Position numbers and translations under genes: made by a program. Shown here piece by piece: positions 18,925 through 64,000 of a DNA stretch of 64,000 nucleotides. Source of the DNA: Yuukianura sp. NJ FZ-2021 (Eukaryota). Every line of letters starts with the position of its first letter. The stretch's first letter is position 1. The notes under the pieces were generated by a model that did not search any database, was not told the DNA's origin, and worked only from the letters and a program-made list of their open reading frames with translations. Where the stretch lies: positions 3,658,001 to 3,722,000 of the forward strand of contig CM102287.1 in NCBI GenBank assembly GCA_046563655.1. The letters are read 5' to 3'.

Positions 18925-19128
18925 AATTGTTCCCAAATATGCACTCGTATTGGCGTGTCGTCTATTACCCAGCGTCAAAATAACTGCATAAATTTACATT
19001 TATGTGCAATAAGTGTGCAACATGCACGAAATTGAACGTTAGAAGGGTGTCGAATATCGTTTCCCTAGAATCAAAATCTGTTCACGTAAATGTAATTCAA
19101 CCACGTAATTCAAAGTTTATGTATCCTG

Positions 19129-31000: not shown

Positions 31001-31046
<46 letters not shown>

Positions 31047-32061: not shown

Positions 32062-34867
32062 GGGCTGCTGGGACGTAAAACCACGACTTTCGTGTTTACA
32101 CATTTTTTAAACTTTTTTTTCGCAACAACAGCGAAAACCGCGCAAAAAACGAACACGCGCCAAACTTATTTAGAAATAGAATTTAGAAATTGAAATTTCA
32201 TCCTACCTCCTTTGTCTTTTGCTCTAAAGCTTTCTCAAATTCGTATTTACACTTTTCAATTAATTATTATCGCCTAATCCCTAGTTCTAATGAAGTTACA
32301 GTTAGCGTAGAGTTAGTCAAAATGAAAGTGCTAACAACTGCTGATCTGGAAAGAACGAACGAGAAGAAAAGGAGACATCAGCATCCAGATCAAACTAAAG
32401 ATGAACGACGGAAGCAAAACAAGAACGCTGGTAACCCCTACAGATCCAGAAACGGGAATTTTGTCCCTGGAATTCAGCCACCAACTCAAGTACGCTATTA
32501 CGAGATTCAATATTATGTAACTTTTAAATGTTTCAGATAAAGATTTTCATATTTGAATAGGCTAAAACGTGCGGACCTTGCACAAAACAAGGCTGCTTCC
32601 TCCCATTGGCCATCAAAATGGAAGTCTTCACAGCATACTGGAAGGAAATGGACACTTATGAAAAAAAGGCTGCCTTCTTGATGAAATGTATTGAGATCCG
32701 GAATCCTAGGACAAGATCAATTCCGAATCAACCCAGCCGGATACAAAATGTATACAAATACACGATACTGCATCAAGGAATGCCACTGGAAGTTTGCAAG
32801 AAAGGATTCCTGGACATACTTCAAATTAAGGAGAATGCCATCCGTACTGTCATTAAGAAGATGAGAGCCGGACATATGACGATTTGTGATGGGCGTGGCA
32901 AACACCAAAAGTCAACTATACCCACTGTTACAAAGAATGCTGTAATCTCGCACATTCAGAACTACCCAGCGATTGAAAGTCACTATCGACGGGTGAATGG
33001 GAACCCTCAACGTCTATACTTGGATCCAGCACTGAACATTTCCATAATATACAATGATTATATCAAGGCATGTCGGGACAACAATGTGCAGCATCTCGAG
33101 GTGGAAGAGTCGTATTTCCGTAAAGTCTTCTATACGTTCAAATTGAGTTTCGGAAACCCAAAGCAAGATACATGTGATCTTTGCGACAAATACTCCATTG
33201 CGGTCGCCTCCAATCCACTGCTGGCAGCAGAGCGGGACCTGCACCATACCCAAGGTAATCAACAGTTACCTTAACAGTGTTGCTTTTACGCCTGGATTTG
33301 AGCTTTACATTGTTGCAAGTTTCATTGTATTAGATCCTGACAACGATGCCATTTTAACTGAGTTAGATCTTCGTAATGTTGCTAGGTTAGGCTCACTGCA
33401 TTAGATCCTTATACATTGTTGCCACCTTTACACTAAATCTCCATACCCTTTTTCACCATTCAATTTCTTAACAGTGTTGCCATTATGCTTGCATCTGACC
33501 TTTACATTGTTGCCATTTTAAGTGCATTGGATACTCGCAATGTTGCCATCTCAACTGCATTAGATTAATACAATGTTGCCATGTTCTCATTTTGACCATG
33601 CAGTTTCTTAACAGTGTTGCCATTATGCTTGCATCTGACCTTTACATTGTTGCCATTTTAAGTGCATTGGATACTTATAATGTTGCCAGTTCAGTAACTC
33701 GACTTTCTTTTTTTAGCTGATGCAACGTATCACGCGTACAAGAACGACAAGTTACGATCCAAAGCTGACACTTCTTACGTCACAATCACTGTAGACCTGC
33801 AACAAGTAATCTTCACTCCTTGGCTAAGAAACAATTCCGCCTTCTACCTGCGGAAGATGAGCAATTACAACTTAGGTATTCATAATGCTGCTGATGATGC
33901 TTCTGTCATGACCTTGTGGAGCGAGACAACCGGGAAAAGGGGATCGAACGAAATAGCCAGCGCAATTTGGAATTACTTGACCTTGACTTACAACATTCTC
34001 CTTCCTGGGGAAATGCGAGAACTTGTAGTTTGGTCTGATCGTTGCATTGGGCAAAATAATAATTTCATAGTCCTGAGTATGCTGACATTCCTGGTGCAAA
34101 TTGGGCTCTTCACTTCTGTAAACCATAAACTCTTCGTTACAGGTCATTCCTACAACGACTGTGACAGAGATTTTGGCAACATCGAGTCACGACTAAGGGT
34201 TAACCCACTTATCGTTCCCAGCGACATTGAAATCGCAATAAGAAACGCTAGATGCGAAAATCCATTTTCGTGTGACTGGATTCCCTCCTCCAAAATCAAG
34301 GATTTCAAAGAGGCCAGCACTTCTTAGATACGACCACCAACTCTAAAAGTAACGGAAAGTCTTTGGTTTTTCTATGATGCAAACTTCCGGCAGCAACTAC
34401 TGTCTAGAGAAGATCACAGTGTCGTAAGTTAATTTTGCGATAAAAACATATCCATATTGAAATAATAATTTGCAATTTTAGGGAGGAGTTTGGACAAGAC
34501 ATCATCTTGTCCTCAAATCAAGAGTCCGAATCGGGAACTTCAATCCAAACACCCTAAGCCGTGCTTACAACGATGATCTGCCATTGTCACATGAGAAAGT
34601 GAAGGATTTAGAGAAACTTCTTCCGTTCCTTAAACCGCAACAGGCCTCATTTTATGAGTATATAATCTTAGAAAATTTAGACGCATTCTAAATTACTCAC
34701 TGCTTGCTTACTTAAAATCGTCCGGTAAATTTAAATAAACGTTGTTCTATCAGAAAACAGACGCATGCGCAACCTGGTATAACCGAGAACCACGGACGTC
34801 ATTTTTAAATATTGCCCGGGTGATTTTGAGTAAACACGAAACTCGTGGTTTTACGTCCCAGGCGGAT
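32062..34867 (+). mobile_element. Sola1-type DNA transposon (2806 bp)
   Basis: AATT TSD at 32058-32061 and 34868-34871; empty site in HINE copy 1 at about 1452-1470. TIR core CTGGGACGTAAAACCACGA(C/G)TTTCGTGTTTAC. Confidence 0.85.
32322..34691 (+). pseudogene. Four-exon Sola1-type DDE/D transposase with one in-frame TAG (34325-34327)
   Basis: Exons 32322-32489, 32561-33254, 33717-34423 and 34482-34691 splice GT-AG in frame. Motifs ESHYRR, CDLC, DLQQV, KRGSNEIAS, WSDRCIGQN, GHSYNDCDRDFG and C-terminal LPLSHEKVKDLEKLL..FY. AATAAA at 34734-34739. Confidence 0.85.
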
Positions 34868-35673
34868 AATTGTACAGTTATTTTGACGCTGGGTAATGGG
34901 CGTTGTTATTTCAAAATTTGTGCATACTGGAGAACAATAATTGTTCCGCGAAGCCATTCAATTGTCCACCAAATAATTTTGCTAACAGTTTGATGCAGAA
35001 ATGTTGTGAACCAAAATAATTTTCAGGAGAGTGAAAACGGTTCAGGGCTAAAGCTGAACAACATTCTTATGCAAACGGTTTTTTCACATTTTGGTGCAAT
35101 TGTGCACAAAAAGGCCCCACATCTGCACTGAAAGTTATGAGCGACGTTTCGCTGCATAAATCCCGTGAAAACGGTTTCTTGACGTTTTTCTTCAACGGGT
35201 TTGTGGACAGCTGGTCTAAAAGTCGTATCAATTGCCAACTCCCTCCAGAAGACCTATGCTCAACCCTTGAGCATTGCCCTACCTTGTTTTTAATGCGCAG
35301 TTGTTGATTGTAATTTTTCAAGCGTCTCCCATAGAAACTGCTTAGGTTGAAGTGATTAGTAGAGGTTGAAGTGAAGTGAACAACACGGCTATTTCTTTTC
35401 TAAAACAAAATGTCTAATGTCAACAGCCTAGGTCGAAGGTGACAGGTTACACAAGGGCACCCTGGCACTTTTTTCATTATCAATAGACGCCACAAGGCTG
35501 ACAATCGTTTGCTTTCATGCTGAAGTTTCGTGTTCCGGCATTTAGAAAATTAATTAATTCAAAAAAGAATTCTGTAAAGGACAGTAACTCTTTTAGGCTA
35601 AGTTTTCCTTACGTCAACCTAACACGTTTCTAGGGGTGACGCTTGAGAAATTACAATGAACAACTGCACAGTA

Positions 35674-37627
35674 AAAACAAGGTAGGGCAATGCTCAAGGG
35701 TTGAGCATAGGTCTTCTGGAGGGAGTTGACAATTTATAAGACTTTTAGATCGGCCGGCCGCAAAACCGTGTAACAATAAGGTGAGAAACCGTTTTCATGG
35801 AATTGATGCACCGAACCATCGCTCAAAATTTTCAGTGCGGAGGTGAGGTTCTATTTTGTGTATGATTTACACCAGAATTGTGTTGGCAATTCTACCGTTC
35901 AATTGCACCAACATCATGTTCCTGTTTTGAGGCTCACAATACCTGCACTGAATTGATGTTGTTAATTTCTTGAGCAAGATACACACTGTATTTTAGATTG
36001 TTGGCATGGCAATACATCATACATAACAGCGTTAATTTAACTGCATAATAATGTTGTTCAAATTGGGCTCAGCAGATTTCACTCTGCTCAAAATTATTTT
36101 GATGCACAATCGTTCTCAAGCATGCACAAAACTTTCAGTTGTGTGCATCATGCACAAAACTGACGTGGGGGGAGGGGTGTCGAATGTCGATTCCTAAAAG
36201 TCAAAATTGGTTCATGTAAATGCACAATTCAACGTTTATGTATCCCTGTTGGTCATAAGTGTGCAACATGCCAGAGGTGGTAGCCTGCAACTATTTTCCC
36301 CAACCTGCCCCGCCTGCACTGCAGGAATTTTTAGCCTGCACGCCTGCAGCCTGCAAAATTGTCGAAAATCGGCAGCCTGCACGCCTGCACCTGCAAGGCT
36401 CTTTGGCAGGCCAGCCTGCAGCCTGCGCAGGCTGCCTGCAGTCAGCCTGCAATTTTTTTATGCGAACTGTAATCTGCGAAAATTTCAATATACACTTATA
36501 ACTACTGCGTAGATTCGTTTGCGTATAATGGCAATTACTCAATCACCCTCAATTATCTGTCGGTTGTCCTTTCCAAACACGTAGGGAGAAAAATTTCTAG
36601 TAATAAATTGTTTTACGACACTGCTACCTTACTTTTGGTTTGTTTAACTTTTAAAAATTCTTGATCCTTGCACATAAAAAAATCCGCAAAAGTTATACTG
36701 TCAAATCTTGCGTTGTCTACACGTGCAAGTGTAACGTCAACTTTACTTAACAATATTTCTTCTGCCTCCGGATTCATTATTTATTGTTTAAAAGCCCTAT
36801 AGTGCAACTAATGTACAGCAAAAAGTTTGCATAGTTCCATTGATTTTAATTCTTCAACATTCCAAAGTAATTTTTCTATTCGTTTCTATCTTTTCTTGAA
36901 GTTTCTGAGAATAAAACGCTCAAAAAATCACAACCCGCAGCCTGCAGGCCAAATGCAGGCGCCTGCAGAGCATTGCTGGCTGAACCCGCCCGCCTGCAAC
37001 ATTTCCAAATAAAAACCTGCACGCCTGCAGCCTGCAAAAATCCACCGCAGGTTGAGCCCGCCTGCACGGGCTGCAGGTTGGCCTGCAACCTGCGCAGGTT
37101 TACCTGCAGGCTACCACCTCTGCAACATGCACAAAAATGAACGCTAGAGTGAGGGGTCGAATATGGCTTGTAAAACTCGAAGTTATAAAAATTTCTAGTA
37201 ACTGCAGCTTTGACCGCTGTCATGCACTATTCACATATTAAACATCTAAGCCAAATTTTCTACCCTCTAGTTAAGTCTTAATTTAGCAACGTAATTAAAC
37301 ATATTGCCAGAAAATGACCGGATCAAAACTTCGTTGTTTAAATATATTTTGAGTGTAATCGAAACCAAAATGTTTCCGGGAAACGACTGCACTTAGGGTG
37401 CATAAAGTGGTCGCCCATTTCCACGTTGTTAATATAACACTTTGAGTGCAATTAAGACTTATTGAAAACACTTGAGGCATACATAACCCCCCGGACAAAA
37501 TGGAGCTTATGTTTTAGCGCAAAAGATACTAAAAAAGCGAACGGACAGACAGACAGACAGACAGACAAAGTCGTATCAATAGTCTTCTTCAGCACGTCGT
37601 AGACGTGCGTCTCCAGAAGACTAAAAA
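35674..37627 (-). mobile_element. HINE family A, copy 7
   Basis: Both termini present. The 5' about 0.35 kb is nearly identical to copy 12. Confidence 0.9.
36272..37122. mobile_element. hAT-like non-autonomous element (851 bp)
   Basis: 18-bp TIR CAGAGGTGGTAGCCTGCA. 8-bp TSD CAACATGC at 36264-36271 and 37123-37130. Many subterminal GCCTGCA motifs. Confidence 0.9.
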
Positions 37628-41879: not shown

Positions 41880-43203
41880 AAACAAGGTAGGGCAATGCTC
41901 AAGGGTTGAGCATAGGTCTTCTGGAGGAAGCTGACAATTGATACGACTTAGATCGGCCGGCCGTACAACCGTGGAACAAAAAGATGGGAAACAGTTTTTA
42001 TGCATTTCATGCTACAAAACGCCGCTCAAAATTTTCAGTCCGTATATAAGGTCCTGCTTTGTGCGTTACCTGCACCAAATTGTCCAATAGGAAAAAAGAA
42101 TGAAAAAACCGTTTGCATTAAAATGTAAAAATTTAGCTCAGAAAAGTTTTCAAACTCCTCAAATTATTTGGTGCACAATTGTTCCCAAATATGCACTCGT
42201 ATTGGCGTGACTCAGGCGTCTATTACCCAGCGTCAAAATAACTGCATACATTTACATTTATGTGCAATAAGTGTGCAACATGCACGAAATTGAACGTTAA
42301 AAGAAGGGTGTCGAATATCGTTTCCTTAGAATCAAAATCTGTTCACGTAAATGTAATTCAACCACGTAATTCAACGTTTATGTATCCTGGTATTTATAAG
42401 TGCGCATCATGCACAAAATTGAACGTAGAGGATGAGCCCTCCAATATCATTTGTTTAAAATCGAAATTTCTTGTATAAATTTGAACCCTGCCAAACACTT
42501 TTACATATTATTAATTTAAGCCGGATTTTCTACCCTGTAATAAGCGCAAATTTAACAACGTAAATAAGCATACTGTCAGAAAATGACCAGATCAAAACTT
42601 CGTTTAAAAAAAATATTTTGAGTATAATGCCGAATTTACACATTCCCATGCCGTTTTTCTTTCTGTTGTTATTTCTGCTTTGCTTTCCAATTTTTCGTTT
42701 TATAGTTGCCCTTCTCGTGACAACGGAATTCATCACATCATTCTGATGTGAAACAAGCAGGGAACGGAATTGGGTTTATACATTCCGTTCCTATGCCATT
42801 CCTCTTTACTTTCTTTCTTTTTCAAAAGTTGAACCGAGTTCAACTTTTCGAAGGAAAGTAGAGGGGAAAAGAATTAAATAATAATCTCCGTGTGTTGCTT
42901 AGGGGATGAACCAGTTTCCTAAATCAACGGTTTACAGTTTCTCCGCAGAATTCAGCAAGGAAAGAAGAACATCATTGGAAAAAATTCCTTTCTGCTGAAT
43001 TTTGGTAGCAAGTATAAATGAAACACTGAATGTAAAGGTAAGGGAGTGGGAACGTTCACGGCATGGTAACAGAATGTCTAAATTCGGCATAATGCAGACC
43101 TAACACAAAAATTTTGAGGACTTAAAAAGCACGTACGTAATGTGGCCTGCAATTCTTACGTTGTTAATTTACGTCTTTGAGTACAACGTAGACCTACTAA
43201 AAA
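41880..43203 (-). mobile_element. HINE family A, copy 8 (5'-truncated)
   Basis: 3' stem-loop present, 5' hairpin missing. Sister of copy 4. Confidence 0.8.
42628..43089. mobile_element. PIF/Harbinger-like MITE (TSD TAA)
   Basis: TIR TGCCGAATTTACACATTC / GAATGTCTAAATTCGGCA. TAA at 42625-42627 and 43090-43092. Confidence 0.75.
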
Positions 43204-43489: not shown

Positions 43490-45370
43490 CAGTGTTCCGT
43501 AAAAAGCGCTTTTTTAAAGTCGATGCTTTGCTTTTTGCTTTAAATAGCTTTTTTTGCTGTTTTAGTCTTCTGGAGACGCATGTCTACGACATGCTGAAGA
43601 AGACTATTGATACGACTTTGTCCGTCTGTCCGTCACACTTTTTAGGATCCTTTGCACTGAAACATTAGTCCCATTTTGTACGGGGGGTACTGTATCGCTC
43701 GATTATTTTCGTTAGATCTACATTGTACTGAAAGTGTTATATTAACAACGGAGAAATGGGCGGCCACTTTACGTACCCGCAGTATCGTGGCTACCCGAAA
43801 ACGTTTTGGTTTCGATTGCACTCAAAATATTTTTAAACAACCAAGTTTTGACCTGTTCATTTTCTGGCAGTATGTTTAGTTGCGTTGTTAACTTAAACCG
43901 GATTAGAGGGAAGAAATTCCGGCTTAAATTCTTAACATGTAAACAGTGCATGACAGGGTTCAAAATTGCGTTTGCAAGAACTTTTCATAATTTTGATTTT
44001 AAACAAGTGATTTTCGACTCTATAACTTATGCACTTAATTTAACACATGGTGCACGTATTTGAACCGATTTTGATTTTTAATAAGCTGTGTGCGACCCCT
44101 GCACCTCAACGTCCAATTTTGTGCACATTTGTAAGTAGATGCACATACATGTCGAATAGCGCAGCTATTTTGACGCTGGGTAATGAACGTTGTTATTTCA
44201 AAATTTGTGCATACTGGAGAACAACTGCACTACATCTTGTAGAATGGTGATCACATCCGAATTACATTAGTCAAACCTGCAGAGCATAATGTTTACAACA
44301 TTTTAATGCAAACGGTTTTTTAATATTTTCTGCTATTGCACAATTTGATGCAACTTATGCACAAAGTAGGACCTCATTTCCGCACTGAAAATTTTGAGCG
44401 ATGTTTTGTAGGATAAAATGCATGAAAACGGTTTTTCATCGTTTTGTTACACGGTTTTGTGGCCTGCCGATCTAAGCCGTATAAACTGTCAACTACCTCC
44501 AGAAGACCTATGCTCAACCCTTGAGCATTGCCCTACCTTGTTTGCTTTTTATGCTTTAAAAGCAGCAAAATTGTTGTTAATGGGAGGGACGGGAGGTGAC
44601 AGGTAAACAAGTACAAAACAAACGAAGGAATTAGGAACAGAGTCTTCCTTTTTGTACTTGTATTGAGTTAGTATGTCTTTTTAAAAATCTTTCACTTGAT
44701 TAACTTGCCAATCAATTGCTAAAAGTGAAGTGTAAGTGAGAATTGCAGCGAAGAACTCCAAATTCAAGGGATCGGATTGGTGGAGACATAGACAATAGTT
44801 TGATTTGAGTTCGTATAGTTCATTTCCATCTGCCAATGCCAATGTGGTATGCTCAAACCAAGTTTGACATAGAGTCTTATGCTGACAATCTACAGCCTCT
44901 AGTTCCATTTTCCAGTTCCTGTCGACACTGGCACAGATAAGGCCGGCACTGGCACAACAGGAATGGAAATGGAGTTAATTTGCGATTGAAGGACAGTTAA
45001 TTGGCTAGCGGTTTCTCGGTACCTGTCGTGCCAGTGCCAGCGTTAGCTGTGCCAGTGTCGACAGGCCCTGGTAACGCCACTGGACTAGTCACTTGAATCA
45101 TATGTTTGGTGTAGGTGTAGGTAGAACACTAGAGAAACCGGGACACTAACTTTTACTTTATTTTTGGCAAATTTGACAATTTGAGTGCATTTAGTAGTTC
45201 CCGCGAGTCCCTTGAAGCTGCGCGTTCTCTTGTTCACGTTGTTTTTGTTTACCAAAAAAACAGCAAAATTTAAAAAAGCAAACTCGAAAAGCGCATGCTT
45301 GCTGGTTTTGCTTTAAAAGCAAAAAAAGCAAGCAAAAAAAGCATCTGCTTTAAAGCACCGCGGAACACTG
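43490..45370. mobile_element. hAT-like non-autonomous element containing HINE copy 9
   Basis: TIR CAGTGTTCCG / CGGAACACTG. 8-bp TSD GTCGTGGG at 43482-43489 and 45371-45378. Confidence 0.9.
43560..44543 (+). mobile_element. HINE family A, copy 9
   Basis: Both termini present; T-run target. Confidence 0.9.
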
Positions 45371-51131: not shown

Positions 51132-52054
51132 TTTTTAGTCTTCTGGAGACGCACGTCTACGACGTGCTGAAGAAGACTATTGATACGACTTTGTCCGTCC
51201 GTTCGCTTTTTTAGGATCTTTTGCACTGAAACATTAGCCCCATCGCAGTCGGGGGTTATGTATGGCTCAAGTATTTTCACTAGCTCTACATTGCACTCAA
51301 AGTCGTACATTAACAACGTCAAAGTATGCGGCTGAATCGCGTTGCTGTTTCTTTAGTCCTAAAATTGTTGTGTTAGGTCTGCATTATACTCAAAATATTT
51401 TTTAACAACGAAGTTTTGATCTGCTCATTTTCCGACGATATGTTAATTTACGTTGTTAAGTTGGGACTTATTAGAGGGCAGAAAATACGGCTTAAATGTG
51501 TAATATGTGAACAAAGCATGACAGGTTCAAATTTGCGTTCACAAGAAATTTTGATTTTAAATAGCGATATTCGAGCCTATAACTTATGCACTTAACAACA
51601 CATGGTGCATTTATTTGAACCGATTTTGATTCTACAGAAACGATATGCGACACCCTTTCCTCAACGTTCAATTTTGTGCATGTTGCACACTTATTGCACA
51701 TCAATGTAAAATTGTGCAGTTATTTTGACGCTGGGTAATGGACGTTGTGATGTCAAAATCTGTGCATATTTGGGAACAATTGTGCAGCAAAATAATTTTG
51801 AAGAGAGTGAAAACTGTTCAGTTGAACAACATTTTGATGAAAACGGTTTTTAACATTTTGGTGCAATTGTGCACAGAAGGCCCCACATCTGCACTGAAAA
51901 GTATTAGCGATGTTTCGTAGGATAAATCTCGTGAAAACGGTTTCTTAACGTTTTTCTTCAACGGGTTTGCGGACAGCGGTCTAAAAACCGTATCAATTGT
52001 CAACACCCTCCAGAAGACATATGCTCAACCCTTGAGCATCGCCCTACCTTGTTT
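51132..52054 (+). mobile_element. HINE family A, copy 10
   Basis: Both termini present. Confidence 0.9.
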
Positions 52055-52073
52055 CAACAAAAATTTTGAAACA

Positions 52074-54520
52074 TTTTAGTCTTCTGGAGACGCACGTCTA
52101 CGACGTACTGAAGAAGACTATTGATACGACTTTGTCCGTCTGTCCTGTTTTTTAGAAATCTTTCTACTGAAACATGAGCCCAATCCCGTTCGGGGGGTTA
52201 TGTATGGCTCTGTTTTTCTTAGATCTACATTATACTCAAAGTGGTATATTAACAACGTGAGAATGGCCGGTCACTTCTGCAGTGCTGCTTCTTAGGTCCT
52301 CAAAATGCTTGAATTAGGTCTGCATTACACTCAAAATATTTTTTAACAACGAAGTTTTGATCTGGTCATTTTCTGACAGTTAGTTTAATTACGTTGTTAA
52401 ATTAAGCCTAATTAGAGGGTAGAAATTCCGGCTTAAATTCTTAATACGTAAACAGTGCATGGCAGGGTTCAAATTTGCCTTTGCAAGAAATTTTTTATAA
52501 TTTTCATTTTGAACAAGCGATATTCGACTCCACAGCTTATGCACTTAATAAGCCATGGTGCATTTACTTGAACCGATTTTGATTTTAAGAAACGATATTC
52601 GACACCGTTTCTTGAACGTTCAATTTTGTGCATGTTGCACATTTATCGCACATGAATGTAAAATTGTACAGATATTTCGACGCAGGGTAATGGACGTTGT
52701 TAGCTCAAAATCTGTGCACATTTGGGAACAATTGGGCTGCTGGGACGTAAAACCACGAGTTTCGTGTTTACAGAAAATGGTGCATTTTCCCTGGCGATTT
52801 GCACCAAAATTGTGTGATTTTAAGGCCGTTGCACACATTTTTTTACAAACCGTTTTCCGCGAATTTCCGCTGAACTACGATTAGCAAATGAGGGCCGTTT
52901 TACATACGACAAACTACAACTTGTAGTATGATTGTTTATGGTTGGCATAGCTTAAGATTGACAAAAACGATTTTAGACTAAAAAAGGATTGTCGAGTGCC
53001 ACTCCAAAGCCGTTTTCACTTTTAACTTAGAATTGGCTGCACATCCAGGGGCTGCCACCGTTTCCGTGTAAAACACAAAACAGAAAAGTTTTTTGAATTT
53101 TTTGAAACGGTACCTTTTGCTTCGTTTCCGTTTTCGCCAAAAAACCAAACGAAAACGAAAATCAAAACACGGAAAGCAGAAAACCTAGGAAAAATGTCCA
53201 TTCTTGCGACAACCCGTACTGATTTTTTGCGAAATTAAAATTATACGTTAGAATTATAGTCCATTCAAACAATTTTGACCTGCTTCGGAATGAAAAGAAG
53301 TGGATTTTTGAAAGGCAGAACATGAAACCAAATTTCTGAAATTTCGCTATGCATTCAACCGTTTTACCGTTTCCAAACAGTTTTTTCGTTCAGTTTTCGT
53401 TTATCTGTTTTATGACCGTTTCCGTGTCCCGGTTGCGGCCTAACATTCCGTGCCGTTTCCGTTGTTAGAAAAAACGAAAACGAAACGCACGACGGAACCC
53501 CTAGACCTAATGAATCCGAAAGGAGCTTCGTGCAAAAAGTATGAGTTACTTGAAAACATAAAAAATAAATAAAACGTACAAAAGAAAAGCAGCATCGGTT
53601 TCAAAAAATTCGTTAATCTAAACAAAGATGAACAAAACTTTATTAACATTTTGTGAATTTCGATCTTCGACCTTCAATTTTTTCTTCGAATTTCGCGCTA
53701 AATTTTAATGTCTCGTATTATTCCTCGTCTAGTAGAGGTATGTTTCTTCCACTGCATATCCAATGGAAATATCAAATAAACCTATTTGAAGACACAATGT
53801 TTTCGCGTTTACAGTATGGTAAATACTAAAGAAAAATTTTTGCATCAAAAATGAAAATTAAGCAATTACAATTTAGTGGTTTCTAATGTTTGATTTAACT
53901 TGATCCAATTTTTCTTTAATTGAAAAAGTTTCACTACTTCATTTTCAAAATTTTATTCAACTTTTTTTTATCATATTTCAGTTTATATTTTGAATCTCTC
54001 GCACATTCGTCACTATCCTTAATCTTCTAGAACATGCTGGGGACAATTTTCTTACAGCGGTAAATTTCCTTCATTCAGTAATTTCATTAAATCCGCCAAA
54101 TGGCGCGGCGCGAAAAAAAAACGGGGCGGACAGTACCTCTGTGTGAACTCGCCTTAACACTTCCAAATTTTTGAAAATTGCCGAGGCAACGCATCAAAAT
54201 TTTTAGTAAATACGAAAGTCGTGGTTTTACGTCCCAGCCGGATAATTATGCAGCAAAATAATTGTGAAGAGAGTGAAAACTGTTCAAAGTTGAACAACAT
54301 TTTGATGCAAACGGTTTTTTAACATTTTGGTTAGGTGCACAAAAGCCCCACATCTGCACTGAAAATTATGAGCGATGTTTTGTTGCATAAATCTAGTAAA
54401 AACGGTTTCTTAACGTTTCTCTTTGACTGGTTTGCGGACAGCCGGTTTAAAAGCCGTATCAATTGTCAACTTCCTCCAGAAGACCTATGCTCAACCCTTG
54501 AGCATCGCCCTACCTTGTTT
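52074..54520 (+). mobile_element. HINE family A, copy 11 (19 bp downstream of copy 10; hosts a Sola1 derivative)
   Basis: Both termini present. Confidence 0.9.
52734..54243 (+). mobile_element. Non-autonomous Sola1-type element (1510 bp)
   Basis: Same termini as 32062-34867 (GGGCTGCTGGGACG...CGTCCCAGCCGGAT). AATT TSD at 52730-52733 and 54244-54247. No transposase. Confidence 0.85.
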
Positions 54521-55199
54521 GAAGTAGAATCGAGTGGGAAAAAACCGCTTTCATCCCAAGCTTAAGACACGTTCACACAAACGATGAAGTTATTCAGTTT
54601 TCAATTTCTTAAATTCTAAAATTTCTTAAATTATAAATAATAATGCTAACAAGGTAGGGCGATGCTCAAGGGTTGAGCATAGGTCTTCTGGAGGGAGTTC
54701 ACAATTCATACGACTTAAACCGGTCTGCATGAAAACTGTAGAAGAACTGAGAAGCCGTTTTCATGTACTTGATGCACCAAAACGTCGCTCAAACTTTTCA
54801 GTGCGGGTGGTGTGAGGTCCAATTTCGTGCATGAGTTGCACCAGAATTGGGTTGGCAATTCTACCATTTAATTGCACCAAAATTATGTTTCAGTTTTGAG
54901 CCCCAAAATATTTGCACTAAATTGATTATGACACATAATGTATTATCGGTGTTGACAAGGCAATGTACTAGTATTAGCGAAACGAGCGTAAATAAAACGG
55001 CATCAAAATAATGATATCGAATTGAGCTTTGTGCATGATGCACAAAATTGAACGCTGAGGAGAATGGGTCGAATACCCCTTCTTTCAAATCCAAATCGGT
55101 TCATGAAAATGCACGGTGTGTTAAATTAAGTGCATAACTTATTGAGTCGAAAATCGCTTGTTTATAATCAAAATTATAAAAATTTCTTGCAAAGGCAAA

Positions 55200-55960
55200 G
55201 GAGGGTTTCGGTTAAGCTCAGTTTTTGGGCCATTCAAAAGTGGGTGTATTTGAAATTACGCCATGATGAAATTTTCAAGGTAGCTAGATGAAGGCATGTA
55301 GAAAAGTATGTGAAATTTTCAAAATGGCGTCATTTCAAATACTGGCTAAACTTGTGGTCCAACTCCGGCAACTTTAACGGATTCAAAGCACAAAAATGCC
55401 GGAATTAGAAAAAATACCTGGGTAACCGTGTTTTTGGATAAAACTAGTACCCCAGTAAAACGTAAAATTAGAAATTGTGCATCCGAGCAACAGAAAGGTG
55501 GTAATTGTGCAACAGAAGCACCTAAAAGTGGCAGGTTGTGCATCTTTAAGGCTAAGTACTTTGAGATTGTACAACATCAAAAACCGAAAAGTTGGAAATT
55601 GTACAGTACAGAAAACACAAAAGTACCGAGGTGCACAATGCCACTTACCTAAAAGCTGGAATTGGTGCACCAAAAACGTAAAAAGGTGAACGTTTACAGT
55701 GCACAAGTTCAAAAAATTGAAATTGTGCAATGTGAAAAACTGAAAACCGGTGGAATTGTTCCATCCAGCAACGAAAAGTTTACGGGGTGCAACTTAAAAA
55801 CCCGAAAGGTGGTAGTTGTGCAACTTAAAAACCCGAAAAGTGGTAGTTGTGCAAACGAAAAATCCGAAAGGGGGTTAAGTTGTGCAACGTGCACACAAAA
55901 CGTAAATAATTTCCAAATATGGGCATTGGGCCCAAAAAATGACCTTAACGCAAACCCTCC
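55200..55960. mobile_element. Spy-like non-autonomous element (AAA|TTT insertion, no TSD)
   Basis: TIR GGAGGGTTT..TTAAG..TTTTTGGGCCC / GGGCCCAAAAA..CTTAA..AAACCCTCC. It sits between GCAAA and TTT of the HINE consensus GCAAATTTGAACCCTGCC with nothing duplicated. Confidence 0.75.
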
Positions 55961-56038
55961 TTTTAACCCTGCCAAGCACTGTTTCCATATTATGAGTTTA
56001 AGCCAGATTTTCTACCCTCTAGTTAAGTCTTAATTTAA

Positions 56039-56984
56039 CCTCTTGAGTACCGGTTTCAATTTTAATGTTGCTATATTTGCCCAGCATTTTTTTAATGGTA
56101 TCCATGGAGAGGTGCATTAGATTTTTATGAACACGCCAATTTCCACTACTACTTAAAAATTCGCAAAATTCTCCTGAGACCGAGTCATTTTTTTTAATTA
56201 TAATGAGGTCCTGCGAAATGGTGAAATGCACAAATTCCACTTTTCGGGTTTTTACATTGCACAAATTCCACTTTTCGGGTTTTTGCGTTGCACAAATTCC
56301 ACTTTTCGGGTGTTTACAATGCACAAATTCCACTTTTCGGGTTTTTGCATTGCACATCACCACCTTTCCCGTTTTTACATTGCACGTGTTCTACCTTTCG
56401 AGTTTCTCAAGTTGCACAACTACCACCTTCGGTTTTTTCAAGTTGCACAACTACCACCTTTCGGGTTTTTCAAGTTGCACATTTAAACTTTTGGTTGCCG
56501 GAGTGAACAATTTCACAAGTTTTCAGTTTTTGATATGCACAATTTCCATGCTTTTGAGTTATTTACATGCTACACCAATTTCTGCACCTGCACAATTCCA
56601 AACTTTTCGGTTTCTGATGTTGCACAATTTCAAACTGTGTAACATTTACAATGCACAATCGGCCACTTTTCGGTTTTTCCGCTGCACCAAATCCACTTTT
56701 TGGTTATTCTCCTGCACAAATTCCACTTTTTCGTTTTTCTTAATGCACCATGAATGATTATTATAACAAAAACGTACAACCAAAAGCCGATATTTCGGTT
56801 GTTGGTCTCCTGAGCTTTTTTTCAAAAGCCGATATTTCGGCTCTTGGGCTCAGGAGACTGCAAAACTTTGCCGAAATATCGGCTTTTGGTCTCCTGAGCA
56901 AAAATAAACAAACCGAAATATCGGTTCTCGGGCTACCAGGGGAAACAAGCAAAGCCGATATTTCGGCTTTCGGTACTCAAGAGG
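56039..56984. mobile_element. piggyBac-like non-autonomous element (946 bp)
   Basis: TTAA TSD at 56035-56038 and 56985-56988. 14-bp TIR CCTCTTGAGTACCG. Internal minisatellite of about 30 bp. Confidence 0.85.
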
Positions 56985-57978
56985 TTAACAACGTAATTAA
57001 ACTAACTGTCAGAAAATGACAGGATCAAAACTTCGTTGTTTAAATATATTTTGAGTGTAATCGAAACCAAAATGTTTCCGGAAAACGACTGCACTTAGGG
57101 TGCATAAAGTGGCCGCCCATTTCCACGTTGTTAATATAACACTTTGAGTGCAATGTAGACTTAATGAAAACACTTGAGGCATACATAACCCCCCGGACAA
57201 AATGGAGCTTATGTTTTAGCGCAAAAGATACTAAAAAAGCGAACGGACAGACAGACAGACAGACAAAGTCGTATCAATAGTCTTCTTCAGCACGTCGTAG
57301 ACGTGCGTCTCCAGAAGACTAAAAATGACTCCCAAGTGAGAAATGAGGGACTAATGTCCGTCTAAAAATGCAAGACCCTTTGTTTATTCTCAAAATTTAA
57401 AATTTTTGATTTTTTCTGCGCGGGTTGGGTTGCGCTTGCGCAAAGTCATGTATACACCGTTTCACCGAAATGTTTCGCCCATCAGATAACATTGATTAAA
57501 AACAATTGGTCAAAAAGTGAGTTGATTTAAAAAAAATGATTCATTGAAGCATTTGTTGATTGAATTCATTATTTCCAAGTTATTATTTCGAAGCTAGTTT
57601 AGTTTTCGGCTCGTCTATCATTGTTGCTGGATGGATAAAGTATTTCTTCCACACTCTTGGCAAATGGTGGATGTATCAAGATATTGATAATTTCTTCCGG
57701 ACGAAAACTCAATTTCGTCCGTCAAAACGGATTTTATCCCGATTTATACAGATATTTTTTTTTATACATTTGCATTGGAGTCGGGGAACAATAAAGTAGC
57801 GAAGTAAAGGAAAACTGACTATTTAGACGAATAGTAAGGTTACTCCTGGATAGCCACATTTTTTGCGCTTCGTCCAGTGGGTGATATATTTCATCTCGTG
57901 TATTGGGTTGTCTAGTTTCTGTCAAAAACGCCGCTTAGTAATATGGCGCACCAAAAACTGCATACTCGAAACTAATAA

Positions 57979-59477
57979 TTATTAAGTATCTTCAGATACT
58001 TATAGGGATCGTATTGTCCGTCCGTCCTTCTGTCTGTCCGTCCGTCCGTAATGCTTATAACTCGATAACCACTACTCCGATTTCTAAAGGTTTTTTTTTA
58101 AATTAGTAACTGTTTACCTGAGGACTATAAATCAGTTTTCGTCTTCTGGAGACGCACGTCTACGACGTGCTGAAGAAGACTATTGATACGACTTTGTCCG
58201 TCCGTCTGTCACATTTTTTAGGATACTTTGCACTGAAACATAAGCCCCAATTTGTTCGGGGGGTTATGTTTGGCTCAATTGTTTTCATTAGGTCTACATT
58301 GCACTAAAATTGTAGAATTAACAGCGTAGAAATGTGCGGCCACGTTACGCACACGCAGTGTAGTCGTTTCCCGAAAACATTTTGGTTTCGATTACACTCA
58401 AAATATATTTAAACAACGAAGTTTTGACCCTGTCATTTGCTGACAGTATGTCTATTCACATTGTTAATTTAAGCCTAGTTAGAGGGTAGAAAATCCGGCT
58501 TAAATGTTTAATATGTGAATAGTGAATGAAAGGGGTCAAATTTGCATTCACAAGTCAATTTTTATGATTTGGATTTTAAAGAAACGATATTCGACTCCTA
58601 CCCCACAACGTACAATTTGGTGCATGATGCACACAATTGAAGGTTTGTGCAGGTTTGAGAACTACATTGAGCATTGCCATGAAAACATCGACAATACATT
58701 ATGTGCAACTTTCTCAAAAAATTAAGAACATCAATCAAGAACGATACTCGACCCCTTCTCCTAAACGTTCAATTTTGTGCATTTGGTGCACAACAAATTA
58801 ACAACATCAATTCAGTGCAGTGAGTTTTCGGCCTCAAAACTTTAACATGATTTTGGTTCAATTAAACGGTAAGATTGCCAAGACAAATTTGGTGCAACTC
58901 ATGCACAAAGTAGTGTCTCACATTCGCACTAAAAATTTTCAGTGACCTTTTAAAGCTTCAATTACATGAATACGGTTTCTCAGTTCGTCCAGTTTTGCGG
59001 TAGGCCGGTCTAAATGTCGTATCAATTGTCAACTCCCTCCAGAAGACCTATGCTTAACCCCTGAGCATCGCCCTACCTTGTTTCGCTTCACCTCAAGTGA
59101 CCTCCAATAGTGTCACAGGTCAACGTTATGCTCCCCAACAGGGTCACAGGTCAAAGTCATTTTTCTTGTACAATTCGCAAACGGATGGACAGACTTGGAA
59201 GCGGGTTTACGGGAATGATATCTTGATGACCTCGAGTGACCTCTAACAGGGTCAGAGCTCAAGGTCATACTTTTCTCTACATTTCGAAAACAGATGGACC
59301 GATTCGATATGCAGTGGTTTGCGGGAATGGGTCTTTGACTGAGGTCTATGATTCCGACCGTTGTTTGACATTAACCTCTAATAATGTCAGGGGTCAGGTT
59401 CAACAGTATCATGCGCGGTAGCTGTCTATAATTGATCTGACGATACTTATTTACATCGTCCTTGCAAGAAGTTTATT
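57979..59477 (+). mobile_element. HINE-like family B, copy 2 (contains family A copy 13)
   Basis: Same termini and microsatellite as 49358-50198. Confidence 0.75.
58136..59083 (+). mobile_element. HINE family A, copy 13
   Basis: Both termini present; T-run target. Confidence 0.9.
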
Positions 59478-59943: not shown

Positions 59944-61706
59944 ATTATAATATTATTGATAGTAATATTTATAATATTATTATTAATGCAAACATCATTA
60001 ATAGTAATATTTATACTATTACTATTAATATTGAAGGTGAGCGTTAGGCATTCGCAGTGGACCCTAGTATTGGACGAAAGAAAAATAACAACTGATACAT
60101 ATTTAATACGAGAACCTTATTCGGCGACTCCCTGAAAAGAATTGGAAGCATTCTTGTTCTACGCTTAAATCCAAAACAGAAATGTTGATTTTCCACTTCA
60201 AAATTGTAAACAAAAACAAAAGTTACAGCATGTTCTTGTTACCATGGCGTTAATTCTTGACGGACATTCGCGAAATTCCGGATTCCTAAATGTAAATCCA
60301 ACCTAACTTTCGATAGGTTAGGGGGTCCAATCGGGTTATTTTGTTATTAATTTCTAACCTCCATGACCTTTCCAACGATATCTCAATCGGTAGGATTGGT
60401 CACGGATTTCCGTAGTTTTTCGCATTAAATAGGAACCCCTGATGCTTTTTAAATTGGAGAAGGCGGTACTTTGGACACCATTATCTCTGGCCCTGGCTGG
60501 GGGTCCACCGTTTTAGTCTTCTGGAGACGCACGTCTACGACGTGCTGAAGAAGACTATTGATACGACTTTGTCTGTCTGTCTGTCCGTCTGTCACGTTTT
60601 TTAGGACTCATTGTACTGAAACATTAGCCCCATCGCAGTCGGGGGGTTATCTATAGCTCAAGTTTTTTCATTACCTCTACATTGCACTCAAACTCGTACA
60701 TTAACAACGTAGAAGCAGGCGGCTACTTTACGTACCCGCAGTATCGTGGCTCCGCAAAACAGTTTTAGTTTCGATTGCACTCAAAATATTTATAAACAAC
60801 GGAGTTTTGATCTGGTCATTTTCTGGCAGTATGTTTAATTACGTTGTTAAATTAACACCGATCAGAGGGTAGAAAATCCGGCTCAAATGTTTAGCATGTG
60901 AATAGTGCATAACAGGGGTCAAAGTTGCAGTTACTAGAAATTTTTATAATTTTAATTTTCACAAGCGATATACGACCCCTCGAGCCAGCGTTCATTTTTG
61001 TGCATGACTCATACTTATGACCAACAGAGATACAAACGTTGAATTGTGCATTTACATGAACCAATTTTGATTTAAAAGAAAGTATATCCGACATCCTCCT
61101 CATCGTTCAATTTTGTGCATGATGCACAAAGCTAAATTTCGATATCATTATTTTGACGTTGGGTTGTGGACGTTGTTATTTCTATAGTAGCAATTTCTGA
61201 ATACTTAAGACCAAGTGTTTCAAAATAATTTTGAAGAGAATTAAAATTGTTTAGAGCACAATTTGTACAACATTTTGATGGAAGCGGTTTTTAATCATTT
61301 TTATTGTGTTGCACAATTCGTTCAAATTTTATGCCACAGCAATGGCATGACAACATTAACTTTACTTTACGCTTAAGTTGTTTATCAGTTGTACCTCGAA
61401 AAAAATTGCATAAAGTTTTTCTGACTGCAATTCATGACTGTTTTTTACAACGTCTTTTACATTTTGTTTCTTATCGCTTCAACTGTTAAAAGTATAAATT
61501 TCATACACTGACAACAATTCTTTCATTATATTCATTCAAGTGCTTAACGTATAGTTTAACTCATAGTTTACAGTTCTATTCTAAGTAGTATATAATTTAA
61601 ATCTTCAACTCTATACAGCTTCGTCGGGTAAGAATATGTATTTTAATCATTTATCTTATTGCAAAATATATTCACTGACGTTTCATTGTATTATACAGGT
61701 ATAATT

Positions 61707-64000
61707 ATGTCTAGTCGTGATCAACGGGCGAAAGCCAGAAACCGCAGGCAAGCTGTAAGGCTCAGAGAATCTAGCAATCAAGGCGAGCGGAGAATGGACA
61801 ACACGGCACGTCGCTTAGCTCGTGAAAATGACGACTACAGAGAAATGGAACAAGCACGGAATACTGCAGCGCATCGTCAACTACGTGAAAATGACGACTA
61901 CAGAGAAATGGAACAAGCACGGGATACTGCAGCGCATCGTCAACTACGTGAAAATGACGACTACAGAGAAATGGAACAAGCACGGGATACTGCAGCGCAT
62001 CGTCAACTACGTGAAAATGATGACTACAGAGAAATGGAACAAGCACGGGATACTGCAGCGCATCGTCAACTGCGTACTCAGGTTCATGATGAGCCCTGGG
62101 AGTCGGTGGTTGAGGTCTTCGAAGAAAAATGCAGGGAAGGCCCTTCACATATCTGTATCTCCTGTGGTGGACTTTGGTTCAAGAAATCTATCAAGCAGCT
62201 GCGGCGATCCGACTGTACTCGATACGATGACAACTTTCTGAACGCTGTTTTCTCTACGCAACTGGAAGGAAACTTTTGTAATACTTGTCATGCTGCAGTT
62301 AGATCTGGTCGAGATTCACGCTTGGCGCTTACCAATGGACTCAACTTTCCGGTCATCCCTTCAGAGGTTTCGTCTTTGACGCGTCTGGAAGCTCGTTTAG
62401 TTTCACCATACCATGTTTTCCAGGCGATTTGGGCTGTACAAGGACAGCATGGTACAGTTTAACTGTTCATAAATAAGCTCAAAATTTGATTAGTTTTGCT
62501 AATAACAATATTTGCAGGTCAATTGAAGACGAAAGGACGGATTGTGAATGTTCCAGTTTCCGTGACAAATATTGTTCAAAGTCTGCCCCGCCTCCCTTCA
62601 GACGATTCAGTCCTGCATCTCCGGCTGGCCCGTCAGATGCATGTGGAGAAGAACTACACGTCTGGAAATATACGTCCACAAAAAGTAGTTGACGCTGCTA
62701 AAGTTTTATGTCAATCACCTTTGTACTCTCAACATGGGATATCAGTTTCGAATTCCTGGATCGCGGATTCTCAAGAATTGAATTCCTTTGACTCAGCCAT
62801 GGAGAGTCAGCTTGAAAACTCTCATATAATTGCGAACGAAGAAAGTCCGGACGCTGAAACCGAAGACTCGACAGCGGGTGAGACGATGCTAACAGATGCC
62901 TCGGGGCTTCGGATGGCCCCCGCTGAGGGTAATCGGCCTGTTTCTGTTCTTCTGGATGACGACGCTATATTTCTAGCCTTTCCTCAAATATTCGGCGGAG
63001 AAAAGCTCAATCCAATGTATGCCGGCAAAAAAATCTCAAAAGCTGACATGTTCATGTCGTTTGCAAGGAACAAAGACCGACGTGCTGCCGAGTCAGTGGA
63101 TTTCCTCTTGTACATGGCGAAGACTCTAGAAATTGCACGAATATCTAGCAATCGCACCATTCACTTGAGGAAACGAAAAATAAATGGTGAGCATATCATT
63201 CCAACTGCGGGACAAGTCTTGCACCAGACTTACGTTGATGGCCTCATCAAGGACGACAACGCTTATAAAGTCTTGTCCGGAATACGGAACGCAGGAGTAC
63301 ACTGGAAGAATGAAGGCAACAAAGTTCGAGCGATGATACGTACGTTTGGGATTGCCACATTGTTTGTCACGATTAGTGCTGCAGAGTTGAAGTGGAACGA
63401 GCTGTTGGTGTTATTGAAGAAAGTTCTGGACGGCATCGACATTTCTGAGCAGGAAGCCCAAGAATTGTCCACTTCTGAGAAAGCGTTGTTGATTCAGCGT
63501 GATCCAATCACATGCGCGCGGTACTTTGACCACCGTTACTCCGCTCTGAAATCTACTTACAGATCTCGAAATGGGCCTTTTGGTAATCGTGAAATCCGAC
63601 ACTTCTACGAAAGAGTGGAGTTCCAGCACCGAGGAAGCCCCCATGTGCATGCAATGTTTTGGCTCTCAGACCCACCAATTTTCAATCCAGAGAATGAATC
63701 GCATGACGAAGTGACTAGTTTCATTGACAGTATGATAACATGCCGTACAGACTACCCTCCGGAGGATCCAATCACTGGTCTACTAACTCTCCAGACTCAT
63801 CGCCATACACATACTTGCTACAAGCGAACACACAAGGGAGTTAAATGTCGTTTTGGAATACCATTCTTCCCAATGGATCAAACTCGCATCCTTTTACCAC
63901 TGGACAACCCGGCAGACTACAAGGAACTCAAGCTACGGCATAAATTGATTCGTGACTTTTTGGAAGCTCAAATGCCGGACGCGGGAATGTCATTTACACA
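61707..64000 (+). CDS. Helentron Rep(/helicase) protein, exons 61707-62451 and 62518->64000 (open to window end)
   Basis: Cys cluster CISC..CNTC. After a 66-nt GT-AG intron: GQLKTKGRIVNVPV..LPR, LAFPQIFGG, TLFVTISAAELKW, RDPITCARYF, the HUH motif VEFQHRGSPHVH (63615-63650), and QTHRHTHTCYK..CRFGIP. No stop in exon 2 by manual translation. Confidence 0.93.
61821..62072 (+). repeat. 63-bp coding tandem repeat x4 (RENDDYREMEQARDTAAHRQL)
   Basis: Units start at 61821, 61884, 61947 and 62010 and are nearly identical. Confidence 0.95.

Follow-up and report, generated by a model that had tools for sequence, protein, structure and literature searches.

The 5' part of a probable Rep-encoding HLE2 (Helitron2/Helentron) transposon and its diverged HINE relatives in an arthropod-like genome

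Helentrons and their HINE/DINE-1 partners, as portrayed in excerpts of Thomas, Vadnagara and Pritham (2014; PMC4067079), carry subterminal inverted repeats (subTIRs) of 11-15 nt a few nucleotides from the 5' end, a palindrome set back 8-35 nt from the 3' terminus, ends in T-runs that leave the target site unchanged, and internal microsatellites. Abundant non-coding copies share their ends with a rarer Rep-encoding element. A DINE-1-type inverted repeat is nested in the 5' subTIR, and motif 2 of the Rep protein reads (V/I)ExQxRG-S-P-HxH, the S between G and P being diagnostic. The same excerpts treat non-autonomous copies as simple deletion derivatives with 84-99.9% (usually >95%) identity to their partner, and give >95-98% for published Helentron/HINE pairs. 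Helitron2 elements, in the sections of Bao and Jurka (2013; PMC3627910) that deal with their termini, have two hairpins and terminal inverted repeats that are short and asymmetric; the 5' repeat builds the 5' hairpin, the 3' repeat lies just ahead of the 3' hairpin, the 5' end starts with T, and insertion takes place after T-runs. Canonical Helitrons are described there with 5' TC and 3' CTRR ends and insertion between A and T. The parts of the HELIANO paper that treat HLE2 (PMC11417382) describe its end structure, with terminal inverted repeats of 12-16 nt, a stem-loop after the right repeat and T-T insertion; they name DUF6570 as a marker of the group and confine the endonuclease mostly to one HLE2 subgroup.

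We analysed a stretch of 64,000 nucleotides (hereafter the window) and find that its last 3.5 kb (60511-64000) very probably make up the 5' part of an HLE2 (Helitron2/Helentron) rolling-circle transposon that encodes Rep, from an arthropod-like genome. The window edge cuts the element inside the Rep domain, 116 codons past the HUH histidines. Judged by its sequence features, the element is a textbook HLE2 transposon with HINE/DINE-1-like partners, belonging to a divergent lineage of a known group. The Helentron traits listed in a preliminary description of this DNA are all present: a GSPH HUH motif, subTIRs, a 3' stem-loop (on the HINEs), T-run ends and the lack of a target-site duplication. 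So are an internal microsatellite, the DINE-1-type repeat nested in the 5' subTIR, and the sharing of ends between abundant non-coding copies and a rarer Rep-encoding one. The two hairpins, the asymmetric repeats and their placement, with the 3' side taken from the HINEs, and the T-starting 5' end match the Helitron2 account, and the 11-nt subTIR falls within the 8-16 nt range of HLE2 terminal repeats. Small offsets are seen relative to that account: the 5' subTIR starts 5 nt past the first T, compared with 0-2 nt in Helitron2, depending on how many Ts are assigned to the element, and the 3' subTIR of the HINEs ends 36 nt before the terminus, compared with about 20-30 nt (PMC3627910). Nothing in the window contradicts the HELIANO description of HLE2. 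Assignment to the canonical Helitrons (HLE1) was rejected, as the ends read TTTTAG.. and ..CTTGTTT, two hairpins are present where canonical Helitrons have a single 3' one, and the motif is GSPH and not GLPH. The coordinates of all features are collected in Table 1.

Table 1. Features of the HINE copies and of the Rep-encoding element, in window coordinates.
Feature	Position	Strand	Evidence
HINE copy A1, 1235 bp, complete	866..2100	+	hairpin, 3' motif, BLASTN
HINE copy A2, 877 bp, complete; nearest in the window to the Rep element (84-87%)	10309..11185	+	BLASTN, segment identities
HINE copy A3, 928 bp, complete	17282..18209	-	hairpin, 3' motif, BLASTN
HINE copy A4, 2.1 kb, 5' end diverged	18405..20553	-	3' motif, BLASTN
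HINE 3' fragment, diverged	30370..30668	-	BLASTN
HINE copy A5, 4.3 kb, with partial internal duplication and 2.8-kb foreign insert	30944..35289	+	BLASTN
HINE copy A6, 1.95 kb	35675..37626	-	hairpin, 3' motif, BLASTN
HINE copy A7, 5'-truncated	41880..42642	-	3' motif, BLASTN
HINE copy A8, 984 bp, complete	43560..44543	+	hairpin, 3' motif, BLASTN
HINE copy A9, 922 bp, complete	51133..52054	+	hairpin, 3' motif, BLASTN
HINE copy A10, 2.4 kb, head-to-tail, 19 nt past A9	52074..54520	+	hairpin, 3' motif, BLASTN
HINE copy A11, 2.7 kb	54647..57324	-	hairpin, 3' motif, BLASTN
HINE copy A12, 948 bp, complete	58136..59083	+	hairpin, 3' motif, BLASTN
5' terminus of Rep element, TTTTAG (T-run; exact boundary within the Ts ambiguous)	60511..60516	+	flanks of 11 copies lose similarity directly upstream of TTTT
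Stretch homologous to HINE internal sequence, 64-87% identity	60511..61318	+	BLASTN and segment identities
5' hairpin, takes in part of the subTIR	60514..60557	+	DNA fold -12.2 kcal/mol, z = -4.4; 0/200 shuffles fold as well
5' subterminal inverted repeat (subTIR/ATIR) GTCTTCTGGAG, 11 nt	60516..60526	+	reverse complement CTCCAGAAGAC upstream of the 3' stem-loop in 12/12 HINE 3' ends
Second inverted block ATTGATACGACTTT, 14 nt, corresponding to AAAGTCGTATCAAT near HINE 3' ends	60556..60569	+	local alignment of 5' end with reverse-complemented 3' end of copy A1
(TGTC)n microsatellite, length varies between copies	60570..60593	+	
Exon 1 of Rep gene, 248 codons and 1 base; basic N-terminus, 21-aa repeats, CxxC..CxxC zinc-finger-like motifs, start of DUF6570	61707 (ATG)..62451	+	
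63-bp x 4.0 tandem repeat, in frame, 21-aa units	61821..62075	+	TRF, 98% matches
Predicted intron, GT..AG, 66 nt, phase 1, stop codons inside	62452..62517	+	homology
Exon 2 of Rep gene, open at window end; remainder of DUF6570 to ~62756	62518..64000	+	
Helitron_like_N	63069-63656	+	Pfam, E = 4.1e-21
HUH motif GSPHVH	63633-63650 (H-V-H at 63642-63650)	+	within VEFQHRGSPHVH

The Rep element opens, as had been proposed, with the 5' hairpin, subTIR and microsatellite of the surrounding HINEs. The window contains the 39-nt hairpin sequence (60517-60555) 11 times at no more than 3 mismatches, compared with 0 expected from 100 shuffles, and 7 occurrences besides that of the Rep element are exact. Over its first 66 nt the element is identical to the HINE 5' ends at 58-66 positions (88-100%; segment identities), and its subTIR 11-mer recurs unchanged in 9 of the 10 HINE 5' ends located by the hairpin scan, an identity of the length (at least 11 bp) by which Thomas et al. 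assign elements to one family in the excerpted text (PMC4067079). The position of the terminus is supported by public sequencing runs, in which many loose contig ends with unlike flanks fall at 60510/60511. Homology to HINE internal sequence then continues for about 0.8 kb, in line with the preliminary description: in a BLASTN search of 60511-62000 against the window it spans element positions 1 to 791-808 (to ~61301-61318) and ends ~390 bp ahead of the Rep ATG. Between element positions 100 and 500 the identity to the window HINEs is 78-87% (segment identities).

Twelve to thirteen HINE loci were counted in the window, close to the 'about 13' given before; 12 of them have the 3' end motif and the other is a diverged 3' fragment. 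The predicted 3' end motif, of which 0 occurrences were expected, has the layout ..CTCCAGAAGAC..ATGCTCAACCCTTGAGCAT..GTTT, and the 3' stem-loops fold with z of about -3. All six complete short HINEs start with TTT(T/A) and finish with GTTT, and none of the six has a target-site duplication of at least 2 nt. A TBLASTN search of the window with six full-length relatives (Rep, helicase, endonuclease) gave the gene at 61701-63995 as its sole match, and no coding remnants ahead of the HINE 3' ends. The proposal that these HINEs are internal-deletion derivatives of a 'master' element was not supported as it stood: inside, they are 64-87% identical to the Rep copy, unlike the >95-98% of published Helentron pairs in the excerpts (PMC4067079). 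As compared here, the window HINEs are relatives that have conserved ends in common with the Rep copy, and appear too diverged to be its recent deletion derivatives. Other parts of the genome seem to contain HINEs closer to the Rep copy.

The spliced frame of the Rep gene comprises two exons and 742 codons, with no stop up to the window end. The gene had been called intact and spliced; the splicing stands by homology, while 'intact' and 'master' can be judged over the N-terminal 742 codons only. Exon 2 is missing from the default list of open reading frames, as had been remarked, because it runs off the window end, and it is listed once open-ended frames are allowed. The spliced junction aligns without a gap across 11 homologues, and the DUF6570 profile (PF20209, E = 4.3e-6) continues across it, with profile positions 3-48 in exon 1 and 50-130 in exon 2 (30.0 and 27.6 bits, both above the 24.3 cut-off). 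By this homology the intron is real. A 1-nt deletion variant at 62494, found in the public runs, falls inside it. In exon 2, VEFQHRGSPHVH carries the Helentron-type S of motif 2. The triplet just ahead of that motif is Y-E-R, where relatives have YYR, FFR, YWR, YIR or FYR; set against the published diagnostic triplet F/Y-(w/l/y/k)-R (PMC4067079), the outer residues agree and the middle one does not.

Across a collection of 5.8 billion proteins, identity to the window protein does not exceed 53%. Its closest relative, P0001 (49% identity, 1957 aa), contains PIF1, a domain found in each of the five close relatives that were scanned. The tree places the window protein and P0001 as sisters (support 90), within a clade that holds Mucorales Helentron proteins (support 99). 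GSPH is present in 202 of 212 homologues, including all 18 that have an Exo_endo_phos domain. A single-sequence search of the PDB with the window protein gave no match; the family profile matches Helraiser, the reconstructed bat Helitron transposase (PDB 7LCC), over residues 499-612 with the HUH motif included (E = 6.8e-5). Helraiser has the same HUH Rep fold family, but it is an HLE1 element, with RGLPHAH in place of the RGSPHVH found here. When metagenome, prokaryote-genome and viral contigs were scanned with the protein as guide, no relative and no extension of the element emerged, and the 32-nt 3' end motif had 0 exact matches among metagenome contigs.

From the family to which it belongs, we infer that the Rep gene would run on into the catalytic tyrosines and a PIF1 helicase, probably with a C-terminal AP-type endonuclease, and that the element would end in a 3' subTIR and stem-loop like those of the HINEs. 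Transposition would follow published Helitron-like elements. The HUH/Tyr Rep would cut a nick in one strand at the 5' end, from which the helicase would peel that strand away in the 5' to 3' direction. Termination would be signalled by the 3' subTIR together with the hairpin, perhaps through base pairing to the 5' subTIR that opens the 5' hairpin. The single-stranded copy would then enter a T-run with no target-site duplication. HINEs would keep only the ends and be mobilised in trans, which would account for ends conserved far above their insides.

Copies of the element were followed in public DNA runs, three from one sample (X1, X2 and X4) and one from a second organism in a separate study (X3). 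The best-matching sample may be the source of the window itself, so only X3 is independent. The Rep gene is present in several diverged copies, with two variants of 62564-62705 within one run, and pieces with 99-100% identity occur in both organisms. Among the 40 of 133 substitutions listed, 17 of the 24 coding ones are synonymous, compared with 23% expected (binomial p = 7e-7). The coding indels listed are +3 and +3; 1-nt indels fall in the intron and upstream of the ATG. In X3, depth per contig, which does not equal copy number, is 327-353 for contigs 98-100% identical to 60625-60858 and 5-9 for the Rep pieces. X3 coverage is almost nil past ~62900.

It is a substantial possibility that the element is of the type proposed here but dead, whether in this copy alone or across its lineage, with the gene broken or truncated past 64000 and no autonomous 'master'. 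Most transposon copies in genomes are defective. The sequence read stops at 64000, the window HINEs are 13-30% diverged from the Rep copy inside, and one X3 contig joins 60861 to 62793, a deletion derivative in which half of the gene is lost. A dead element is harder to reconcile with 742 codons free of stops, with the synonymous excess and the coding indels in threes, and with near-identical pieces in two organisms.

The proposed endonuclease is a separate matter. The element may instead be of the Helitron2 type, an HLE2 transposon with Rep and helicase only and not a strict Helentron, a reading we consider unlikely. A 5' hairpin with asymmetric inverted repeats corresponds exactly to the Helitron2 definition in the sections cited above (PMC3627910), and the restriction of the endonuclease mostly to one HLE2 subgroup in the HELIANO text (PMC11417382) points the same way. 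A precomputed Exo_endo_phos match is found in just 18 among the 120 longer homologues listed, a count that understates the frequency of the domain, since the endonuclease of P0001 is missed by Pfam and found by BLASTP only. In that search the C-terminal 255 aa of P0001 match the endonuclease regions of P0007, P0004 and P0011 (E = 1e-36 to 1e-32). Against this reading, the nearest relatives of the window protein, these four, all have a C-terminal endonuclease-like region.

The gap of ~390 bp between the end of HINE homology and the ATG, in a window crowded with nested repeats, would also fit a HINE 5' fragment that came by chance to lie ahead of an unrelated Rep gene or gene fragment. We regard such an adjacency as very improbable, since contigs from X1, X2 and X4 and from X3 span the boundary between HINE-like and unique sequence (~61318), reaching from ~61148 or 61220 to 61419-61850. 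The X3 contig (61148-61850, 706 nt) has 3 differences, and the per-contig depth of the bridging contigs exceeds that of the single-copy flank. Furthermore, an HLE2 Rep is the type expected for such ends, and gene and ends have the same orientation. The linkage asserted in the preliminary description was thereby borne out. Only the window itself joins the very 5' terminus to the Rep gene; no run contig was seen to do so, and the high-copy 5' part breaks contigs.

Domestication of a Helentron transposase as a host gene selected for a cellular role would account for the strong synonymous excess between copies, but is hardly credible given several diverged copies in one sample, a transposon 5' terminus kept in the right place and orientation, and a repeat-dense setting in which none of 16 long open reading frames was recognised as a host gene.

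With this element, the annotation gains a putative autonomous partner, a 5' boundary and a gene model with a 66-nt intron for what is seemingly the most abundant repeat family of the region, and thousands of HINE copies become classifiable as rolling-circle elements instead of MITEs or unknown repeats. The finding adds a Helentron lineage that is divergent (no more than 53% protein identity to the collection) and has signs of selection on its transposase; it leaves the known working of Helentron-type elements unchanged. Tentatively, and with considerable doubt, we suggest a currently mobile animal Helentron lineage, with a Rep under purifying selection, near-identical copies in two organisms and a very large HINE population that is still being fed, and, as a bolder thread of the same proposal, the 21-residue array as a conserved HLE2 module. 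If this were true, the full element could be an experimentally tractable active HLE2 transposon.

The 21-aa units of the window protein have homologous repeats in the relatives P0001, P0006 and P0008. Our search for a published description of N-terminal arrays found none, which is weak evidence, the main structural and biochemical papers on Helraiser lying outside the search. An HMM of the 21-residue unit matched 5 of 213 proteins; it is too short for sensitivity, so the wider claim is drawn from periodicity, by which 39 of the 110 homologues with enough N-terminal sequence have period-21 arrays. The array may represent a module that HLE2 transposases conserve while varying its copy number, and that could, for instance, bind repeated DNA. 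Elsewhere in the window, the best named matches of a BEL/Pao polyprotein are from Folsomia candida (50-54%), a loose pointer to arthropods.

The Rep-bearing element, which is cut by the window end at 64000, starts at 60511 with TTTTAG and shares its 5' end with the short, non-coding copies (HINEs) of this eukaryotic, repeat-dense window. Many contigs of the public DNA runs stop at 60510/60511 and have unlike continuations, confirming this position as the family's 5' boundary. Folded as single-stranded DNA, the 5' hairpin (see the table) reaches -12.2 kcal/mol (z = -4.4), a stability matched by none of 200 shuffled sequences. Its 39-nt sequence has 11 matches in the window when up to 3 mismatches are allowed (0 expected), and the 3' end motif predicted in the preliminary description is found 12 times (0 expected). 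The estimate of about 13 HINEs made there was fair, with 12 copies having a 3' end and one 3' fragment located at 30370-30668.

Features of the Rep-bearing element and of a retrotransposon in the window
Feature	Position	Strand	Remarks
BEL/Pao LTR retrotransposon	22367-27485	+	two long overlapping ORFs, 990 and 745 aa
Imperfect 5' hairpin	60514-60557		incorporates part of the 11-nt block
11-nt block GTCTTCTGGAG	60516-60526		just inside the 5' end of the Rep element
14-nt block ATTGATACGACTTT			downstream of the 5' hairpin, before the microsatellite
(TGTC)n microsatellite	60570-60593
Exon 1	ATG at 61707		frame up to GT at 62452
Intron (predicted)	62452-62517		66 nt, AG at 62516-62517, phase 1, stop codons inside

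The flanks of the copies differ right outside TTTT on the 5' side and ..CTTGTTT on the 3' side, and a target-site duplication is present in none of the six complete short copies. When reverse-complemented, the 3' end shows both the 11-nt and the 14-nt block of the 5' end; between these blocks the 5' end has extra sequence compared with the 3' end, which is the 5' hairpin. The inverted block is followed on its 3' side by a stem-loop (8-bp stem, 3-nt loop, z about -3) and a 15-nt tail.

Splicing of the Rep gene is predicted from homology. The reading frame carries on from 62451 into 62518, and the junction is gap-free against 11 homologues (..QGQH-G-QLKTKGRIVNVP.. compared with ..MGPT-G-QYRSKGGIVNVP.. 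in the closest one). The Pfam domain DUF6570 continues across it: the final part of exon 1 matches profile positions 3-48, and the first part of exon 2 matches 50-130. Exon 2 further encodes a Helitron_like_N domain (E = 4.1e-21) with the motif VEFQHRGSPHVH and H-V-H at 63642-63650. The spliced frame has 742 codons and no stop up to the window end, which lies before the catalytic tyrosines, the helicase and beyond, so that intactness refers to these first 742 codons only. A continuation of the element past the window was absent from the three sequence collections scanned. Exon 1 also contains an in-frame tandem repeat at 61821-62075 (63 bp x 4.0, 98% matches), encoding 21-aa units (..ENDDYREMEQARDTAAHRQLR..). 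About ten such units are present in P0001, the closest homologue in the protein collection, and six in the moth homologue P0008; the Lucilia homologue P0006 matches them by TBLASTN, and 39 of the 110 homologues with enough N-terminal sequence have period-21 arrays in the N-terminal region. We found no description of N-terminal 21-aa repeats in a literature of limited cover.

The element is very probably of the Helentron type (HLE2), with the HINEs as its relatives. Thomas et al. (PMC4067079) distinguish Helentron from Helitron proteins by a serine that stands between the G and the P of motif 2. This serine is present in the window protein and in 202 of 212 collected homologues, among them all 18 for which an Exo_endo_phos domain is annotated. 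The second diagnostic triplet, Y-E-R in the window protein, fits in part only. According to the HELIANO study (PMC11417382), DUF6570 marks the HLE2 group, which inserts between T and T and whose ends carry inverted repeats of 12-16 nt, the right repeat being followed by a stem-loop. Bao and Jurka (PMC3627910) define Helitron2 by asymmetric terminal inverted repeats, of which the 5' one forms the 5' hairpin, and by the presence of two hairpins. Apart from the partly fitting triplet, all features visible in the window agree with HLE2. In contrast, the 5' TC, the 3' CTRR and the GLPH of canonical Helitrons are all lacking; the family profile matches the Helraiser transposase (7LCC) weakly (E = 6.8e-5), and Helraiser has RGLPHAH where the window protein has its exon 2 motif. 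Pairs of Helentrons and HINEs are already known from mites, mosquitoes, Drosophila and oysters (including PMC4067079), and elements of this type have been surveyed across eukaryotes (PMC11417382).

The best homologue, P0001 (1957 aa), is 49% identical to the window protein, and the protein collection holds none of any length class that is more than 53% identical. In a FastTree phylogeny built from 66 Rep regions, P0001 and the window protein are sisters (support 90), and the pair falls among proteins of Mucorales (clade support 99); this placement is approximate because the branches are long. Among the homologues, P0007 and P0011 have a Pfam endonuclease above the cut-off and P0004 below it, and the C-terminal 255 residues of P0001, blank in Pfam, align to these endonuclease regions (E = 1e-36 to 1e-32). 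By analogy with these relatives, the window element likely encodes an endonuclease as well. The ORFs of the BEL/Pao element contain DUF1759, Peptidase_A17, RVT_1, an integrase zinc-binding domain and DUF5641, and their best named relatives are proteins of Folsomia candida and other arthropods (42-56%), which points to an arthropod host whose annotated proteome is missing from the protein collection.

With 60511-62000 compared to the window by BLASTN, the short copies match from element position 1 to 791-808 (~61301-61318) at 64-87% identity, and 61221-61301 corresponds to a region of the short copies ~200 nt upstream of their 3' end. Such a layout would be expected if the short copies were missing all of a long element between ~61318 and its last ~200 nt. 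The HINE-type 5' end followed by a gene with a predicted intron, noted in the preliminary description, is confirmed. The first 66 nt are identical at 58-66 of 66 positions between the Rep-bearing and the short copies, whereas positions 100-500 are 78-87% identical. Among themselves, the short copies are 85-100% identical over the final 60 nt; therefore, the ends are kept and the interiors drift. A1 and A5 are 99.7% identical over 351 nt; by this measure, some short copies such as these two are young relative to one another. The further proposal of an intact master of these HINEs stands in part: the frame is open over the first 742 codons, but the HINEs of the window differ too much from this copy to be its descendants and, judged by their sequences, are not its recent derivatives.

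Four public DNA runs carry parts of 62080-64000: X1, X2 and X4 come from a single sample of organism A, possibly the source of the window, and X3 is from organism B in a separate study. Contigs cross the boundary between HINE-like and unique sequence at ~61318 in all four (X1, 61220-61419; X2, 61220-61722; X4, 61239-61850; X3, 61148-61850, with 3 differences in 706 nt). Therefore, it is not at the window locus alone that the Rep gene is joined to the HINE-like 5' part. The segment 62394-62618 has 0 differences in X3, and the intron is thus in the DNA there too. Two distinct X2 contigs cover 62564-62705 (1 and 6 differences), and contig depth in X1, which does not equal copy number, is 98-455 for Rep pieces and 47 for the unique flank; these data point to several copies of the Rep gene. 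Among the 40 of 133 substitutions listed, 17 of 24 in exons are synonymous (23% expected, p = 7e-7), a sign of selection on the Rep gene. The only exonic indels listed are two 3-nt insertions, and 1-nt indels occur at 62494 (intron) and 61599 (upstream of the ATG).

In X3, contigs that match 60625-60747 and 60731-60858 exactly or almost exactly reach depths of 327-353, compared with 5-9 for Rep pieces. Another X3 contig jumps from 60861 in the HINE-like 5' part to 62793 in the middle of exon 2, omitting 1931 nt; its depth (27.7) exceeds that of the Rep pieces of this run, and its shorter side is only 27 nt. It may come from a deletion derivative of the coding element, and these contigs hint that closer non-coding derivatives, as well as at least one true deletion derivative of the coding element, exist elsewhere. 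Element pieces in X3 (61148-62618), the intron and non-coding sequence upstream among them, have 0-3 differences per 138-706 nt, and the unique flank 60300-60423 has no cover; the near-identity could reflect a very close relationship of the two organisms or a recent spread of the element.

In the most likely mechanism, drawn from work on Helitron-like elements (PMC4067079, PMC11417382 and PMC3627910), the Rep nuclease would nick one strand at the 5' end and become joined to it, the fused 5'-3' helicase would unwind this strand, and the 3' inverted repeat with the stem-loop would signal the end. Pairing of both inverted repeats has been proposed to open the 5' hairpin (Bao and Jurka, PMC3627910). 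The single strand would enter a T-run without duplication. Short copies with both ends would be mobilised in trans, and their 66-nt 5' and 60-nt 3' ends would be well kept relative to the interior because they moved in this way.

The HINE copy A5 has a partial internal duplication (31562-32062) and carries a foreign 2.8-kb segment (32062-34868) with ORFs at 32187-34327, one with DUF7869 (E = 6e-11), which may be a nested insertion or a capture. At 35289 (+) and 35675 (-), in the region 35259-35705, the 3' ends of two HINEs point towards each other across 385 bp. Their outer flanks are identical, in inverted orientation, at 35 of 40 positions, suggesting that a HINE end was duplicated in inverted orientation together with its flank. 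A9 and A10 follow each other head to tail with 19 nt between them (52054-52074), and may have arisen by tandem insertion or as a rolling-circle read-through product.
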